Source: a virus. Taken from it: a stretch of 12,851 nucleotides of DNA. Shown piece by piece: positions 132-6,717 of this stretch. Every line of letters begins with the position of its first letter. Position 1 is the stretch's first letter. A program made the position numbers and the translations under genes. The notes below the pieces were generated by a model. That model had not been told where the DNA came from and made no database searches. It saw only the letters and a program-made list of their open reading frames with translations. The stretch lies in the UHGV virus genome UHGV-0102871; one strand, 5' to 3'.

Positions 132-263
132 TTCTTCAGCCAGTCGTTGCGCCTTCAGTGGGTTGGTAACGACTTCACCCCACGGCAGCAACCATCCGTT
201 TTTCTCTTTGAGCCAGGGAAGGCGCACCGCGCCAACCCTGATGTCGTCGTGAGCGTGAGTCAT
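105..263 (-). CDS. Small hypothetical phage protein (52 aa), last gene seen in the leftward operon
   Basis: ATG at 263-261 overlaps the TGA stop of the upstream 142-aa gene (ATGA coupling). Manual translation gives MTHAHDDIRVGAVRLPWLKEKNGWLLPWGEVVTNPLKAQRLAEELNEKQVAA. Its 3' end lies inside the right arm of the inverted repeat. Below the ORF-track size cutoff; no homology recognised. Confidence 0.4.
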   Translation of the reverse strand: MTHAHDDIRVGAVRLPWLKEKNGWLLPWGEVVTNPLKAQRLAEELNEKQVAA

Positions 264-688
264 AGGATGGACTCCATTTCGTCGATGTAGAGGCCCTGAG
301 CAATCAGGCGGCTACGGCGGGCGGCACGGGCTATGCACTCCTGCCGTCTACCTTCCTGCGATTGCTCAATGGCGCGCCGGGTGAACAGGCGCGATTTGCC
401 CTGCGGCGTCACAACCTTCGGCTTCGTGACCAGGTCGAAAGTCCGGTCGCAGATGCCGTCCCCGTTGATCCACTTTTCCGACTCAACGATCTGCGCTATC
501 TGTCCGGAGCCGCGGGTAATACCGTTGGCTACCCGGTTAAACTCGATGAGCGTTACGCCAAACTTCTCAGCGATTTCGCTGCCGGTTACCGGGCGGCCGC
601 GCGTCTGAATCATCCAGATAACGCGCTCACGAAGGCCGGAGAATTGCCCGGTGCGCCCTGGCCTGCGGTAAAATGGTGTGCGTTTCAT
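260..688 (-). CDS. Hypothetical phage protein (142 aa), possible HTH DNA-binding protein
   Basis: ORF-track ORF. ATG at 688-686 overlaps the exo stop (ATGA). Basic protein with an HTH-like stretch (TGSEIAEKFGVTLIEFNRV). Function not recognised. Confidence 0.6.
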   Translation of the reverse strand: MKRTPFYRRPGRTGQFSGLRERVIWMIQTRGRPVTGSEIAEKFGVTLIEFNRVANGITRGSGQIAQIVESEKWINGDGICDRTFDLVTKPKVVTPQGKSRLFTRRAIEQSQEGRRQECIARAARRSRLIAQGLYIDEMESIL

Positions 689-2355: not shown

Positions 2356-3327
2356 TCAGTAATGAATTTTCGCGCAGGGGATCAGGTTATCTTTCAGAGC
2401 GGTAAGCACTTCGATAGCCTGCTCGCGGGTTAAGCTGGTTTGGCTGGTGAGCGCGTTAACGATGTTGGTGCCGACCGTCTTGCGGTGCTTAACGTCAGCT
2501 TCACGCTTTGCCTGCTCATCGGCGAGGCGCTTCTCTTCGGCCAGGCGGGCATCTTCGGCCTGTTTGGCCTTCAGGCGCTCGGCTTCAACCGCCGCGGCTT
2601 TTTCGCGTTCCGCCCGGGCTTCCGCTTCCTGCTTCTCGCGAGCTGCACGCTGTTCCGCTTCGACGCGCTGGCGCTCCGCCAGTTCAGCGCGGGCTTTCTC
2701 TTCGGCTTCACGGCGCGCTGCGGCTTCAATCTCCGCTTTGTGCTTCGCTTCGGCATCGCGGCGGGCTTGTTCTGCCGCTTCCTGTTTCAGCCGCTCATCA
2801 CGTTCACGCTGAGCCTGTTCCGCCAGACGGCGCTGCTCTTCGCGGTCACGGTCAAAATCCTTGTTCATCAGTAGAGCCATTTCGTGGTCCGCTTCGAACT
2901 TGGCAGCCAGCTCCTGATCGAACCTGATGTTCATCTCCAGCGCTTCGGCGTGCATCGCGTTCATGGCTTCTTCAGCCTTAATGCGTTCCTGCTCGGCTTC
3001 CCATTCGGTGAGTGGGCGGCGGGTCGCATCGCGCAGCTCGTCGCAGGCATCAACGAATCGCTTAATTTCGGCCTCAGCCGGACGCACAGCCTCTTTCAGG
3101 CGCTTCAGGTACTCACGGCCCGGCTTTTCGATTGCCGTCTTGCTGCGGGACACCTGCGCTGCCAGAGAGGCAACACGGTCACGGCCTTTCTTCGTGGACA
3201 GGTCCGGCACTTCGTTTACAGCCTGGCGGATTTGCTCAAGGTACGCGTCAAGGCCGCCCGCTACGTAAAGCACTGGGGCCTGTTCCGGCTTGATTTCGAT
3301 GACAGTTAAGTCCGTTACTTCGCTCAT
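2356..3327 (-). CDS. Hypothetical phage protein with long charged E/R/A/K-rich coiled-coil segment (323 aa)
   Basis: ORF-track ORF with AGGAGA Shine-Dalgarno before ATG 3327. Globular N-terminal ~110 aa, then ~160 aa of low-complexity heptad-like repeats (AEQAQRERDERLKQEAAEQARRDAEAKHKAEIEAAARREAEEKARAELAERQR...), then a ~50-aa C-terminus. The several plus-strand ORFs overlapping it are composition artefacts. Confidence 0.7.
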   Translation of the reverse strand: MSEVTDLTVIEIKPEQAPVLYVAGGLDAYLEQIRQAVNEVPDLSTKKGRDRVASLAAQVSRSKTAIEKPGREYLKRLKEAVRPAEAEIKRFVDACDELRDATRRPLTEWEAEQERIKAEEAMNAMHAEALEMNIRFDQELAAKFEADHEMALLMNKDFDRDREEQRRLAEQAQRERDERLKQEAAEQARRDAEAKHKAEIEAAARREAEEKARAELAERQRVEAEQRAAREKQEAEARAEREKAAAVEAERLKAKQAEDARLAEEKRLADEQAKREADVKHRKTVGTNIVNALTSQTSLTREQAIEVLTALKDNLIPCAKIHY

Positions 3328-3397
3328 GGTTTCTCCTGAAATTTGGATGTGCAGATCCCGCCCGCGTAATGCCAGGCCGATCGGTTGAATAGGGTGG

Positions 3398-3595
3398 TTA
3401 CTGCTGCGCGATGGATTTCGCCGGGAACTCGCCGTTGCGGATGATGCTTTCTACCGGCCAGCACTCAGCTGACACTTTCTGCTCTGTAGCTGCCAGGCTG
3501 CATTCCTGCTGGCTGTCGTAAACGCCGAGAATGACATCCTGATAATCACCGTTGGTCATTGCCACGGTCAGGACGAGTGCGAATAAAGTTTCCAT
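3398..3595 (-). CDS. Small hypothetical protein (65 aa) with hydrophobic N-terminus, in the kil-like position
   Basis: Internal ATG (3595-3593) of the 83-aa ORF-track ORF overlaps the stop of the upstream 42-aa ORF (TGATG coupling). Sequence METLFALVLTVAMTNGDYQ... has a hydrophobic N-terminus. The longer 3398-3649 form cannot be excluded. Confidence 0.45.
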   Translation of the reverse strand: METLFALVLTVAMTNGDYQDVILGVYDSQQECSLAATEQKVSAECWPVESIIRNGEFPAKSIAQQ

Positions 3596-3723
3596 CAGTG
3601 AAGAGTCCTCCCGATGGCGACGGCGTAAAGGCGTTTTGCTTCTTCCCACGCCGGAGCATTGCGATGGAGCACCGCGAACGACGCGAGCCGTTGGGCCTCT
3701 CTGATCTGCTGCTGGTTTACCAT
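3595..3723 (-). CDS. Small hypothetical protein (42 aa), in the cIII-like position
   Basis: Manual translation: MVNQQQIREAQRLASFAVLHRNAPAWEEAKRLYAVAIGRTLH. Strong Shine-Dalgarno (AAGAGGAA) 3-4 nt before the ATG; stop overlaps the next start. Not in the ORF track (below size cutoff). Function unknown. Confidence 0.4.
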   Translation of the reverse strand: MVNQQQIREAQRLASFAVLHRNAPAWEEAKRLYAVAIGRTLH

Positions 3724-3864
3724 GATTTCCTCTTGGCCTTATCGCGGCGAACGGAACGGTTAATACAAGACTTCAACGCATTTATTCAGTGTTTCAATGG
3801 GCGGTGGATGGCCGCCGGTTGTCATAAATGGGCAGACTCGAAAATCTGCCTATGTATGGCCGAT

Positions 3865-3884
3865 AAAAAACCCGCCGGAGCGGG
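3865..3884 (-). terminator. Candidate intrinsic terminator immediately after the 222-aa gene (minus-strand RNA CCCGCUCCGGCGGG + UUUUUU)
   Basis: Plus strand reads AAAAAA-CCCGCCGGAGCGGG-TCA, where TCA is the TGA stop of the 222-aa gene. On the minus strand this is a 5-bp GC stem with 4-nt loop followed by a U6 tract. Confidence 0.55.
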
Positions 3885-4553
3885 TCATTCATTCTTTGGT
3901 ATGCCGCAAAGGGCGTTTAGCGTTTCAACGGGAATGGCAAGTGCGGTGCTGGTCGCTTCACGGCGTTCCACCTCAGGCAAATATGGCACTGCCTCAGGCC
4001 ACATCTCAGCCAGTTTTTTAACAGTTGAGACTTTGGTTAGAGCACCTTTAACCTGCAATTGGAAGGCATCAACTTCATCGTAAAGAACGTTGATGGTTAC
4101 CGTCGATTCAGTGAGTCGGTCGTGTAATTTTCCAACTTTCTTCAGCGTGCTGTAACTTTCAGGAACGAAACCCGAATCAATTACAGGCGCGAAGGAAGCT
4201 CCGAAGAACAGGTCGCTTTCAAGATCGTGCTTACCAATATGTTTTCCACGGTGGCGATAGCGATGATCCAAACCGTTCCTGGCTAATTCGTGATACTCAC
4301 CATTAATAATGACCTTTAAAGTTGCAGTTTTAGCGCCGACCTGCATCTTGATGAAGGAGTTATCTTTGAAATCTTCCCGAGCCTTAGTTATTTGCTCATC
4401 GCTAGTGTTTTCCTGCTTGAGCAATGCCTGTCGAATTTCTTCAACAATTTTCGCCCTCTCATTAACCGCAGCTTTCGCTTTCTCAAACAATGGGGATGCG
4501 AGAAGCAGGTTATGGCATAGCTGATTTTTAATTTCGTTGTTAAGACGAATCAT
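3885..4553 (-). CDS. AT-rich orphan gene (222 aa), unknown function; first gene of the leftward operon, in the sieB/ral position
   Basis: ORF-track ORF with GAGGGT Shine-Dalgarno 7 nt before ATG 4553. Visibly lower GC than flanking genes (by eye, not computed). Soluble-looking, no recognised domain. Bracketed by a ~400-bp leader upstream and an intrinsic terminator downstream. Confidence 0.75.
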   Translation of the reverse strand: MIRLNNEIKNQLCHNLLLASPLFEKAKAAVNERAKIVEEIRQALLKQENTSDEQITKAREDFKDNSFIKMQVGAKTATLKVIINGEYHELARNGLDHRYRHRGKHIGKHDLESDLFFGASFAPVIDSGFVPESYSTLKKVGKLHDRLTESTVTINVLYDEVDAFQLQVKGALTKVSTVKKLAEMWPEAVPYLPEVERREATSTALAIPVETLNALCGIPKNE

Positions 4554-4969
4554 TGACTTACCCTCTGTCGTTACCCGCTGATGCGGGAGAAATGCTTTGG
4601 CGATGTGGTAGGTGGGAGACCCATTTCGACCCGATTCGGCCTACTTATCTTCGGCAATAGCTCCTCGGGCCTCGCCGCTTTACGTGCGACATATTCCCGT
4701 CCATGAACCCTTCACCACATCCCATAACATTCCCTGTATTGGTCAGCGCCAACTCCCTGCCAGTGTTGCCCGTTCTCACGCCGTTCTCGCTCTCGCGTGG
4801 GGATACTCTCTCACCGACCGGATCGCACCCGGTGATACAGCACGTTTACGTGTAGGGGTCTTAACAGGTCATTGACGCTGTAAATCTGCATGTTGTTAAA
4901 AAGCAGGCGACTTGCTGTCCGCCGCTGGCTAACTTCGCTCAGCTGTCGATGTTTCGTTTCGATGGGGTA

Positions 4970-5048
4970 AATTTAGCGTGATGCTAAATTATGCGCAATA
5001 GCAAAATGCTAAATTGTTGAATGGTTTTATTTAGCGTATTGATTAATA
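4970..5048 (-). promoter_or_regulatory. oL-like operator cluster and probable pL region: three sites with half-site ATTTAGC-N5-GCTAAAT
   Basis: 4970-4990 is a perfect 21-bp palindrome (AATTTAGCGTGATGCTAAATT). Two degenerate copies at ~4996-5015 (AATAGCAAAATGCTAAATT) and ~5028-5048 (ATTTAGCGTATTGATTAAT). Same half-site as the cI/cro intergenic operators. Exact -35/-10 not resolved. Confidence 0.55.
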
Positions 5049-5085
5049 AGCGATTAAAAATTTACAGCGAAGGAATTCGGGACGT

Positions 5086-5109
5086 AAAAAAGCCCGCGCG
5101 ATGGCGGGC
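5086..5109 (-). terminator. Intrinsic terminator downstream of the repressor gene (minus-strand GCCCGC-CAUCGC-GCGGGC + UUUUUU)
   Basis: Plus strand reads AAAAAA-GCCCGC-GCGATG-GCGGGC, 20 nt past the cI-like stop. On the minus strand this is a 6-bp GC stem followed by a U6 tract. Confidence 0.65.
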
Positions 5110-5129
5110 TTGAGGGGTTTTGCGTGAGG

Positions 5130-5807
5130 TTATGGGATGTTTAGTATTTTGGCATCAACCACAACGCCGATGATTTTGCAGTTTCCATTAATTTCTAGCA
5201 TTGGATATGCGGGGTTAAGGGGCTTTAGGAAGCGTCTGCCGGCATCGATTACAAGCTTCTTAAAGGTCGCTTCGTTATCGCCTTCTAGCTTCGCGACAAC
5301 CAGCTTTCCGTTGCGCGGCTCGACTTCAGGATCAACAAGTATCGCTGCTCCCTCGGGTATGCTCAGTCCAGCCGGGGAGGTCATAGAATCCCCTTTAACG
5401 TCCAGCCAGAATGAATCTTCTGAGCAGTCAACAGTCGTGTCATACCAGCGATCTATCGCTCTTCGGTGATAAGGTTCTACAGCTTCCATCCATTGCCCCG
5501 CGCTTACCCAGCTGATTACAGGATAACTTCCTTTTGTCTCGTTCAGTCCTCGAAATGCAACGTTCGAAGGTTCTTCACTGGCGTGTAAAACATCCATCCA
5601 GCCAAAAGGCAGATCAAGCGCAGTTTCAATTTTGCGAGCCATCTTATCGCCGATATTGCGATGAGGGTTTGGTCCCAGTAGCTGGCTAAGCGCAGCCGGA
5701 CTTGTCTCGATGAGCTCGGCAAACTGCGCTTTGGTCATTCCAGACTCGTGCTGACGCTTCTCGTACAGCGCTTCCAGGTTGGCTTTTCTGATTTCTTTAT
5801 TTTCCAT
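5130..5807 (-). CDS. cI: cI-like prophage repressor (HTH N-domain plus LexA/S24 peptidase C-domain), 225 aa
   Basis: C-terminal domain carries the S24 Ser/Lys dyad context (DVKGDSMTSPAG ... ATFKKLV) and LexA-like strands (GAAILVDPEVEPRNGKLVVAKL; KIIGVVVDAKI). N-terminus is HTH-like. Start set at the internal ATG 5807-5805 (MENKEIRK...) just left of the operators; the ORF-track ORF extends to 5924. Confidence 0.85.
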   Translation of the reverse strand: MENKEIRKANLEALYEKRQHESGMTKAQFAELIETSPAALSQLLGPNPHRNIGDKMARKIETALDLPFGWMDVLHASEEPSNVAFRGLNETKGSYPVISWVSAGQWMEAVEPYHRRAIDRWYDTTVDCSEDSFWLDVKGDSMTSPAGLSIPEGAAILVDPEVEPRNGKLVVAKLEGDNEATFKKLVIDAGRRFLKPLNPAYPMLEINGNCKIIGVVVDAKILNIP

Positions 5808-5824
5808 ACCTGCATTGTTACTGC

Positions 5825-5893
5825 TTTTAGCAAAATGATAAATGTGCAAATTGCTAAATGATGCTTGCGTAGTATTTAGCATAACGCTAAACT
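5825..5893. promoter_or_regulatory. oR-like operator cluster with divergent pR/pRM region between cI and cro
   Basis: Sites TTTTAGCAAAATGATAAAT (5825-5843) and ATTTAGCATAACGCTAAAC (5874-5892, 13/14 palindromic) share the oL half-site. Candidate pR: -35 TTGCGT (5865-5870), 17-bp spacer, -10 TAAACT (5888-5893); the stronger operator overlaps the spacer and -10. GGAGA Shine-Dalgarno precedes the cro-like ATG at 5924. Confidence 0.55.
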
Positions 5894-5923
5894 CCAAATC
5901 AAACGACTCACCCGGAGACACCA

Positions 5924-6157
5924 ATGAGCACTGAACTACACCGCTGGCGCAAGGCCGCCACTACCGACGAATGGGCGCAGCTCGCAAAGTTGGCTAACAC
6001 GACGCCAGGTTACCTGGACCAGATCGCCTACGGAAATCGCCGGGCATCTCCAGAAATGGCATCTGCTATCGAGAAAGGCACGAAGAATTTTCACCGCCAG
6101 GCTCCGGTCCTAAAAGAAAGCCTGGTATTCGCATCGCCGCGTGATACTGCGGCCTAA
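5924..6157 (+). CDS. Cro-like HTH regulator, YdaS-family (77 aa)
   Basis: Divergent from the repressor and first gene of the rightward operon. Motif GYLDQIAYGNRRASPEMASAIEKGT matches the YdaS-type Cro-like HTH pattern as recalled (YL.Q...G.R..SPEMA.AIEK.T). Confidence 0.7.
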   Translation: MSTELHRWRKAATTDEWAQLAKLANTTPGYLDQIAYGNRRASPEMASAIEKGTKNFHRQAPVLKESLVFASPRDTAA

Positions 6158-6174
6158 CCACGAAAGGGAAAGCA

Positions 6175-6717
6175 ATGCATTCACTTGCGTATCAACACAA
6201 TACCGGAATACACCCGGGAGCGATGATAAACCGCGCTCAAGCTAAAGCGACGCCGGACCACGAAAAGATCCGCGATGCGGTCCGTGCCTGGTCATCGGCG
6301 CTGGATAATCAGGACGTGGTGTCAGCGCTGATCATCAACGAATACCGGGAGCAGGGCGGGACCGCCATCAGCTTTCCGGACGACATCAGCCGGGCGCGCC
6401 AGAAGCTGTTCCGCTTCCTGGATAACCGCTTCGACTCTGAGCAGTACCGCGAGAACGTGCGCCAGCTGACGCCCGCAATCATGGCCGTTTTGCCGCTGGA
6501 GTATCGCCATCGACTTCTTCCAGAGGACAGTTTTATGTCCCGCTTAGCTCGACTTGAGAAAGAAACGAGCGAGGCGAAAGTGGCCGTTGCGATGAACGCC
6601 CCGCGTCACCAGAAGCTCAAGGAACTCAGTGAGGGGATTGTAGAGATGTTCCGTGTCGACCCGGATCTGACCGCGCCGCTGATGGCTATGGTCACTTCGA
6701 TGTTGGGGGTTATGTGA
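6175..6717 (+). CDS. YdaT-family protein (180 aa) in the cII-equivalent position
   Basis: AGGGAAAG Shine-Dalgarno upstream. Motifs IINEYREQGG... and TPAIMAVLPLEYRHRL resemble Rac prophage YdaT-family proteins as recalled. Follows the YdaS-like gene as in Rac. Confidence 0.6.
   Translation: MHSLAYQHNTGIHPGAMINRAQAKATPDHEKIRDAVRAWSSALDNQDVVSALIINEYREQGGTAISFPDDISRARQKLFRFLDNRFDSEQYRENVRQLTPAIMAVLPLEYRHRLLPEDSFMSRLARLEKETSEAKVAVAMNAPRHQKLKELSEGIVEMFRVDPDLTAPLMAMVTSMLGVM

Follow-up and report, generated by a model that had tools for sequence, protein, structure and literature searches.

The early-left operon of a mosaic lambdoid prophage of Escherichia coli raises the question of how transcription from its promoter, pL, can reach the distal genes when an intrinsic terminator lies after the first gene and no gene for an N-type antiterminator is detected. 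The operon is carried on UHGV-0102871, a stretch of viral DNA of 12,851 nucleotides (nt) that was analysed as a whole and is called the window here. From pL to the start codon at 4553, ~410 nt of the minus strand are left untranslated, and this leader matches the nutL leader of phage phi80. We consider it possible, at somewhat under an even chance, that this phi80-type nutL leader is a nut-like, boxA-dependent signal for processive antitermination that works here without N. More tentatively, its 163-nt core (4905-4744, from boxA to GTTGGCGCTG) is proposed to represent an undescribed and widespread class of leader RNA, in which host Nus factors and the RNA's own fold would bring about processive antitermination past intrinsic terminators without N.

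The pL leader and phage phi80 nutL

The leader is framed by the following features:

4971-4989, 4999-5014 and 5029-5047, minus strand: three oL operator-like repeats (16-19-mers), also found at oR
4998-4993 (-35, TTGCGC) and 4975-4970 (-10, TAAATT), minus strand: pL promoter, with the start near 4963
3885-4553, minus strand: first operon gene, encoding a protein of 222 amino acids (aa) of the Nmad5 family (Pfam PF18757, E = 6e-31)
3869-3886, minus strand: intrinsic terminator with a stem of 7 base pairs (bp) and a T tail (terminator scan), the equivalent of phi80 tL1A

Aligned over 414 nt, the leader and its phi80 counterpart between pL and N (GenBank M11919, X13065 and JX871397) show 99.5% identity. 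The pL -10 of the window aligns with the annotated phi80 pL -10, and the homology starts exactly there. The 'nutL regulatory signal' of M11919 corresponds to window 4942-4665, whereas the 'nutL boxA' and 'nutL core' of JX871397 are window 4905-4897 and 4852-4841, respectively. The phi80 leader has carried the nutL annotation since 1985, and was reportedly described by Tanaka and Matsushiro in 1985 and by Rotman et al. in 2012. Judged by this alignment, the locus is at this level already known, as the phi80 nutL leader and not as an anonymous spacer; the original prediction, which was made from the sequence alone, had overlooked both this identity and the boxA (TGCTTTTTAACAA).

In phi80, a 98-aa N gene (3418-3714 of the phi80 locus) directly follows the leader. 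The window has no phi80 N gene, and the Nmad5 gene occupies the same slot. The phi80 match ends 3 nt short of the first ATG and picks up again past the stop codon, so that phi80 N has been swapped precisely for the Nmad5 gene between two conserved joints. On the far side of the slot, window 3728-3885 is ~98-99% identical to the phi80 tL1 region. Phi80 and the window share the leader sequence, the boxA and 'nut core' motifs and the downstream tL1 region, but the window differs in the type of its immunity region (operators and cI) and lacks phi80 gene 40A. Nmad5 is a predicted nucleotide-modification-associated domain to which no function is assigned. The joint on the leader side is the following block:

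4554-4604, minus strand: 3' linker block, with the hairpin CCCGC-AUCA-GCGGG (4587-4574), the Shine-Dalgarno (SD) sequence GAGGG (4565-4561) and the ATG at 4553

This block recurs in phi80, in KO-TP1 and, with 97% identity over 39 nt, in an intergenic region inside HK639, a distribution that marks it as a portable joint for first-gene exchange. Lying between the SD linker and the tL1 terminator, the N/Nmad5 slot acts as a hot spot of cassette exchange, and in other prophages it holds Rha-type regulators, zinc-binding proteins or small open reading frames (ORFs).

A non-coding leader of ~410 nt on the minus strand of 4554-4969, between oL/pL and the 222-aa gene, had been predicted, and these boundaries held when they were checked. 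It had also been called GC-rich, which is correct by a marginal amount, as its GC content of 0.548, peaking at 0.575, exceeds the 0.527 of the window only slightly. The statement that it contains no ORF longer than about 25 codons stood for ATG starts (26 codons, 4811-4891) and fell for TTG (28 codons) and GTG starts (44 codons, 4645-4779). On one strand, ~400 nt without an ORF is statistically unremarkable; what stands out is that a phage operon should contain a gap exceeding 400 nt.

The existence of these three sense-strand ORFs is what could be said for a hidden small protein gene, N-like or encoding a leader peptide. However, 1-nt indels in homologues break the frames, neither a PHROG match nor an arginine-rich motif was found for them, and the substitutions compensate RNA pairing and are not synonymous. 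None was judged to be coding when non-ATG starts were re-checked, and a hidden gene is hardly credible. Small antisense ORFs are likewise interrupted by indels in homologues, and those of 87 and 50 aa were also rejected as genes, as they are conserved only through the conservation of the core.

The absence of an N-like protein, also predicted, was borne out by all searches of the window. No N match was found among the operon genes in Pfam or PHROGs, an arginine-rich-motif scan of all frames gave no plausible N-terminal ORF on the right strand, and phmmer with the N proteins of lambda, Edno5 and Erwinia gave no match. The DUF1482 ORF (3398-3649) was considered as an N analogue and rejected: its arginine-rich extension from a GTG start, GRSKTPLRRRHRED, overlaps the kil end (3595-3723) in another frame, lies before the start of the Pfam domain at Met19 and is probably untranslated.

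boxA and the fold of the core

The promoter-proximal part of the leader and its core contain the following elements, all on the minus strand:

4920-4964, minus strand: 5' leader segment CAUCGAAACGAAACAUCGACAGCUGAGCGAAGUUAGCCAGCGGCG, 95.7% identical over 46 nt to HK639 (blastn)
4906-4923, minus strand: hairpin GGCGGACAGCAAGUCGCC, directly abutting boxA (terminator-like scan)
4905-4893, minus strand: boxA UGCUUUUUAACAA / TGCTTTTTAACAA, 12 of 13 positions matching the rrn/P22-type consensus UGCUCUUUAACAA
4744-4880, minus strand: multi-helix RNA domain of ~137 nt (conservation, covariation and minimum free energy (MFE) folds)
4880-4871 with 4753-4744, minus strand: helix P1a
4868-4862 with 4762-4756, minus strand: helix P1b
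4858-4856 with 4771-4769, minus strand: helix P2
4852-4841, minus strand: hairpin Ha, CACG-UAAA-CGUG, the phi80 'nut core'
4840-4806, minus strand: hairpin H2
4800-4781, minus strand: hairpin H3
4780-4763, minus strand: invariant junction CGUGAGAACGGGCAACAC

The boxA at 4905-4893 is the sole boxA-like site in the window and presumably serves as a loading site for NusB-NusE. It is present in every member of the family that is described below, including 17 that were found without requiring boxA, and is separated from the folded domain by a spacer of 12-17 nt that is not GU-rich. A GU-rich stretch, GGGAUGUGGUG, occurs only 3' of the core and is not conserved across the family. A hairpin ending 6 nt or less from boxA was found in 77% of 60 distinct upstream segments, compared with 37% of shuffles.

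In rrn leaders, a boxB hairpin is likewise followed by boxA. This shared order favours an explanation in which boxA acts alone, with a Nus complex that shields the leader and the operon from Rho, a leaky terminator and a fold that serves another role, such as co-transcriptional folding or insulation. Antitermination against Rho without N is established in rrn and in the CRISPR arrays of Salmonella (PMC7665894, PMC4807359), and phi80 is also annotated with a Rho-dependent terminator, tL1B. The leader resembles the rrn leader and the CRISPR-array boxA in that a hairpin directly precedes a consensus boxA and in that, as proposed here, a long untranslated RNA would be shielded from Rho without a phage protein. 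It differs from the rrn leader in its extra multi-helix domain and in downstream obstacles that are mostly intrinsic terminators, and no boxC-like element is evident in it. As boxA alone explains neither the strong selection on a 137-nt fold beside it nor a 23-fold sense-strand excess of downstream intrinsic terminators, we regard this explanation as distinctly unlikely.

In the folded domain, the long-range helices P1a and P1b, together with P2, close the three hairpins Ha, H2 and H3. P1a and P1b make up 16-18 bp with a tandem G.A internal loop. Across the family, the junctions UUUAGACCCC and GGG(C)AACACUGGCAG are invariant, as is the loop of H2. The direct repeats that the original prediction had noticed near 4770-4796 are two copies of GAGAACGG (4788-4781 and 4777-4770) within the conserved core. 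As the fold contains many G.U pairs, it is specific to the leftward transcript.

Among 84 variants of the type found in the window (type I), the mean column identity exceeds 91%, and their MAFFT alignment, which was not fitted to any model, shows compensatory changes at 6 of the 12 pairs of H2. Alignment to the covariance model R1, a fit that somewhat inflates pairing, gave 22 of 42 pairs compensated among 24 distinct sequences, and 29 of 42, with 81% of cells paired, among 98 distinct sequences. For the latter set, the observed values were reached by 0 of 500 shuffles, and slid controls gave 7-15 pairs. P1b, P2, Ha, H2 and H3 were 87-99% paired. Single-sequence MFE folds, also unfitted, recovered the architecture in 9 of 13 diverged members; HK225, Klebsiella L152, APSE-1 and e14-like sequences folded otherwise. 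The whole leader folds better than its shuffles (z = -2.75). Thus, the conserved structured RNA that the original prediction had proposed to seek in related prophages was found, with the compensated pairs as its signature.

Ha covaries in its stem (CACG/CGUG, CACA/UGUG, CGC/GCG and CGCA/UGCG) and varies in its loop, which is UAAA in the window and AAAA, AGAAA, AAAAA or UUCUAU in homologues; this variability in sequence and length sets it apart from a boxB of the kind that specifies an N protein. P1a, modelled on type I, is 46% paired in the more distant type II sequences and does not transfer column by column, type II having its own helix in that place (GCACAC/GUGUGC). The leader of HK225 (2566-2735) is recombinant, with a type I 5' half, a type II tail and the crossover at the invariant AACACTGGCAGG, and for this reason it is without P1a pairing. 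A pairing of CACG (4852-4849) with the distant CGUG (4780-4777) that RNAalifold suggested was rejected, and the local hairpin Ha preferred, on the basis of a double change in Kluyvera and of the type II variants. When the Rfam 15 covariance models were run on the window and on the leader alone with E values up to 10, no credible match was obtained in the leader; bxd_1 and Pseudomon-groES were dismissed as chance matches.

A structured domain of this size could also work after transcription, as a site for RNase III or another nuclease, as an mRNA-stabilising 5' structure or as the precursor of a trans-acting small RNA, with boxA incidental or protecting the leader. The lambda N leader pairs nutL with a large RNase III-sensitive structure, and it shares with the leader studied here a long structured untranslated region with extended helices between nutL and the first gene. 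The length of P1a plus P1b with their tandem G.A loop, a distal helix of ~20 bp and the folding of the whole leader relative to shuffles are in line with such a role. The structure in the window differs, however, in that it abuts boxA and is independent of the identity and distance of the first gene, which makes control of the translation or stability of a single gene unlikely. The invariant junctions and H2 loop exceed what a nuclease site needs, no terminator lies 3' of the core to release a small RNA, and boxA is strictly kept at a fixed spacing. A post-transcriptional role is therefore rather unlikely.

Spread of the module and its relation to N

The 163-nt core was found in 192 phage records, including many Shiga toxin (Stx) phages of the Stx1a and Stx2a kinds, HK225, KO-TP1 and Enterobacter phages, in 249 of 5426 complete E. 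coli genomes, and in prophages of Enterobacter, Kluyvera and Salmonella species. Type II relatives occur in other E. coli prophages, an e14-like element, a Klebsiella phage, Edwardsiella phage Edno5 and the APSE phages of Hamiltonella, and IMG/VR added 76 further distinct type II variants. Overall, ~180 distinct variants were obtained, those of Stx phages of the O104:H4 type among them. Model R1 gave a single copy per locus; HK022 and HK639 had no match to it, nor did the rightward operons of the window and phi80.

Every copy heads the early-left operon, in sense orientation and immediately behind a cI-type gene. When the ORFs of 234 loci were clustered, this upstream gene was the one neighbour that recurred almost everywhere (206 of 234), and no universal protein partner was found among these loci. 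The first gene 3' of the leader is of dozens of kinds (Nmad5, Rha-type regulators and assorted small proteins), and its distance from the core also varies. Therefore, the role of the leader would be transcript-wide rather than gene-specific.

The intrinsic terminator that had been predicted after the first gene was confirmed at 3869-3886, and it is followed, in order, by kil, the DUF1482 gene, an agt-like gene, gamL, recT and the gene for a YqaJ exonuclease. Across carriers, a stringent intrinsic terminator was present on the sense strand within 2.5 kb downstream in 74 of 89 distinct contexts (83%), compared with 4 of 89 on the antisense strand. Since terminators are embedded in this way, expression of kil, gam, recT and genes beyond from pL requires passing them, and the need for read-through that had been supposed was thus supported.

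Phi80 N is next to the core in ~11 of 121 type I loci, and 77 of the 249 core-bearing E. coli genomes have a phi80 N gene, most of these being laboratory strains with phi80 remnants. The protein has no arginine-rich motif and belongs to phrog_25091, listed in PHROGs as of unknown function. Its homologues were found in 22 phage records; phi80 aside, they lie in the early small-gene clusters of mostly lytic or unrelated phages (Kagunavirus and phages of Salmonella, Erwinia, Hafnia and Vibrio). Phi80 N was rejected as a universal partner of the RNA, as these homologues elsewhere have no such RNA, boxA or hairpin nearby. Erwinia phage 59 encodes a phi80 N-like protein plus a separate lambda-type N. 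The assignment of phi80 N as an N-type antiterminator deserves re-examination.

A lambda-type N was not detectable in any of 130 type I loci, and was found in 3 of 97 type II loci, all of them Edno5-like. The Stx2a phages of the P13374/Phi-191 type have been described as lacking N and having to use 'an alternative mechanism' (PMC4122784), and the PST2/PA2 phages as lacking recognisable early regulators (PMC4587872). HK225, PA2, P13374 and KO-TP1, which carry the core, are viable or inducible phages.

These distributions bear on whether the leader is an orphaned N-dependent nut site, which would need phi80 N or an analogue, so that it would be inert here and leave a defective prophage with a poorly expressed left operon. 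The phi80 leader is indeed annotated as nutL and has a gene called N after it, a lambda-type N accompanies a family member in the Edno5 branch, and the precise replacement of N fits a single recent recombination event. Nevertheless, ~90% of type I carriers and nearly all type II carriers have no N of any kind, functional N-less phages exist (the four just named), and the homologues of phi80 N otherwise belong to lytic phages without the core RNA. As N-less lineages, viable phages included, keep the fold by compensatory change (C-G to U-A in the Stx type, and changes in Salmonella, APSE and type II variants), we consider an orphaned site improbable.

Proposed mechanism and comparison with known antiterminators

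In the favoured mechanism, of a boxA-dependent signal that works without N, a small hairpin and the near-consensus boxA would emerge ~58 nt past the start of transcription, and boxA would load the host NusB-NusE along with NusA, NusG and SuhB. The ~137-nt domain, beginning 12 nt further, would fold and stay bound to the elongation complex, supplying the role that boxB-N has in lambda or put in HK022. The modified polymerase would then resist Rho across the long untranslated leader and pass the terminator at 3869-3886, so that kil, gam, recT, exo and the genes after them would be expressed. Because N is replaced by Nmad5 and no N-like gene is present, the RNA would depend either on the host's factors only or on a phage factor that has so far escaped notice.

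Lambda-type nut sites combine boxA with boxB and are bound by N together with NusA/B/E/G. Like lambda nut, the leader would be a promoter-proximal, cis-acting RNA of the early-left operon, with a consensus-like boxA and with terminators embedded downstream. It differs from lambda nut in that no boxB hairpin with a GNRA-like pentaloop stands beside boxA, the first conserved hairpin being 40 nt away, and in that an arginine-rich N is missing from the window and from most carriers, which have the ~137-nt folded domain instead. No second, nutR-like copy was found when R1 was run on the window and on the right arm of phi80, and the window has its single boxA.

The putL and putR RNAs of HK022 and the putL of HK639 also lie directly after pL in phages without N, and the outcome proposed for both, a polymerase modified by its own nascent RNA, would be the same. 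The first 45 nt of the leader are shared with HK639, where this segment is followed by a put-like antiterminator RNA at the equivalent position; Stx-type variants have a hairpin like put stem I before boxA, and there is a weak motif likeness, GAACGG(G)CAA. The original prediction had suggested an HK022 put-like, RNA-based antitermination. Its RNA-based and possibly N-independent part has gained comparative support, but the put-like label did not survive. The core could not be aligned with putL of HK022 or HK639 by blastn, and R1 misses both, by which membership of the put family is refuted; the element is a larger, unrelated fold, a ~137-nt junction closing three hairpins as opposed to two stems of ~70 nt in total. 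In addition, it has a boxA, which put RNAs lack. The put RNAs act without protein factors and are blocked by mutations in the zinc-binding domain of the RNA polymerase beta-prime subunit. A put-family antiterminator is consequently very improbable here. The likeness of GAACGG(G)CAA to put stem II was set aside, as it is not conserved in type II members.

Several points weigh against antitermination by this leader without N. Complexes of boxA and Nus factors alone counter Rho and are poor against strong intrinsic terminators. The 98-aa N of phi80 reportedly acts at nutL, which is said to be an N-dependent site, and since the phi80 leader itself precedes a gene called N, its independence of N is something that we infer for this prophage. 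The second gene of Edno5 encodes a lambda-type N (phrog_271, E = 2e-12), and some family members may be ordinary N-utilisation sites. N-type proteins are short and diverse, and the searches could miss one. HK225 is viable without P1a pairing, much of the conservation within type I could reflect recent spread by recombination, and an internal promoter may be present 3' of the terminator at 3869-3886. Finally, position 4 of the consensus is a U in the phi80-type boxA, and the function of the suhB boxA is abolished by C4A, or by C4U combined with T6C (PMC5725501).

What appears to be new is that the nutL core forms a conserved, covarying RNA family across N-less temperate phages, of which no prior account was found in Rfam or in the accessible literature, a search that lay outside the primary papers on phi80. 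Early antitermination commits a lambdoid prophage to lytic development and is upstream of toxin release in Stx phages. To our knowledge, no alternative to N has been proposed for the Stx2a phages P13374/Phi-191 (O104:H4) or for those of the PA2 type (O157:H7 clade 8), and the conserved element of ~160 nt is a candidate for N-less early antitermination in these medically important phages. If true, it would explain how early genes are switched on in N-less temperate phages, from the Stx2a phages of O104:H4 and clade-8 O157 to HK225 and the APSE phages of aphid symbionts. An RNA that works without N would be intermediate in mechanism between lambda nut, with its boxA plus protein, and HK022 put, which is RNA only; it would also add a new setting for boxA/Nus action to those of rRNA, suhB and CRISPR arrays. 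Should a protein prove necessary, it would be worth identifying, and the status of phi80 'N' would have to be reconsidered. In either case, the element merits an Rfam family and can help to locate pL when prophages are annotated.

The flanks of the core are mosaic, with a 5' start shared with HK639 and a 3' part that exists in several unrelated versions. The version in the window is the following:

4588-4742, minus strand: distal leader, or 'type A' tail, a long irregular hairpin with a basal helix of ~20 bp in the MFE fold

This tail is kept in phi80 and in Stx phages of the PA2 type and is replaced by unrelated sequence in other carriers; its predicted fold makes a processing site of the RNase III type possible. 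Stx-type leaders have the hairpin GUCGUACGGCGCGAC...CGCCG ~40 nt upstream of boxA, which resembles stem I of the HK022 and HK639 put RNAs. From these alignments, the phi80-type, Stx-type and HK639 leaders are mosaics of antitermination modules. Directly 3' of the core, many leaders have a strong SD sequence and a mini-ORF of three codons (ATG AAG CAC TAA or ATG AAA CAG TAA), followed by a hairpin, at the site equivalent to window ~4742 onward, where the tail of the window differs. The mini-ORF and hairpin could be an element of translational or Rho-related control.

In Stx phages of the PA2/P13374 type, a promoter-like TTGACT-17 nt-TATATT separates the leader from the Rha-type gene (~3380-3420 of one such locus and the equivalent place in another), and this may be an internal promoter in that lineage. 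A promoter scan of window 3300-6300 flagged nothing, missed pL and pR as well, and is hence uninformative on internal promoters.

The remaining features lie outside the leader. The E. coli strain PEC422 is 99.9% identical to window 3700-5130, a region that extends to the repressor gene:

5130-5804, minus strand: cI-type repressor gene, with Peptidase_S24 and HTH domains
5090-5111: terminator at the end of the cI-type gene (terminator scan)

Near the start of the window, at 6-124, two perfectly complementary arms of ~33 nt lie ~53 nt apart and form a large hairpin or inverted repeat, downstream of a gene for a 142-aa protein (260-688, minus strand). The Rfam match to mir-43_2 (E = 9e-4) fell on this repeat, which is unrelated to the leader, and was dismissed as spurious.

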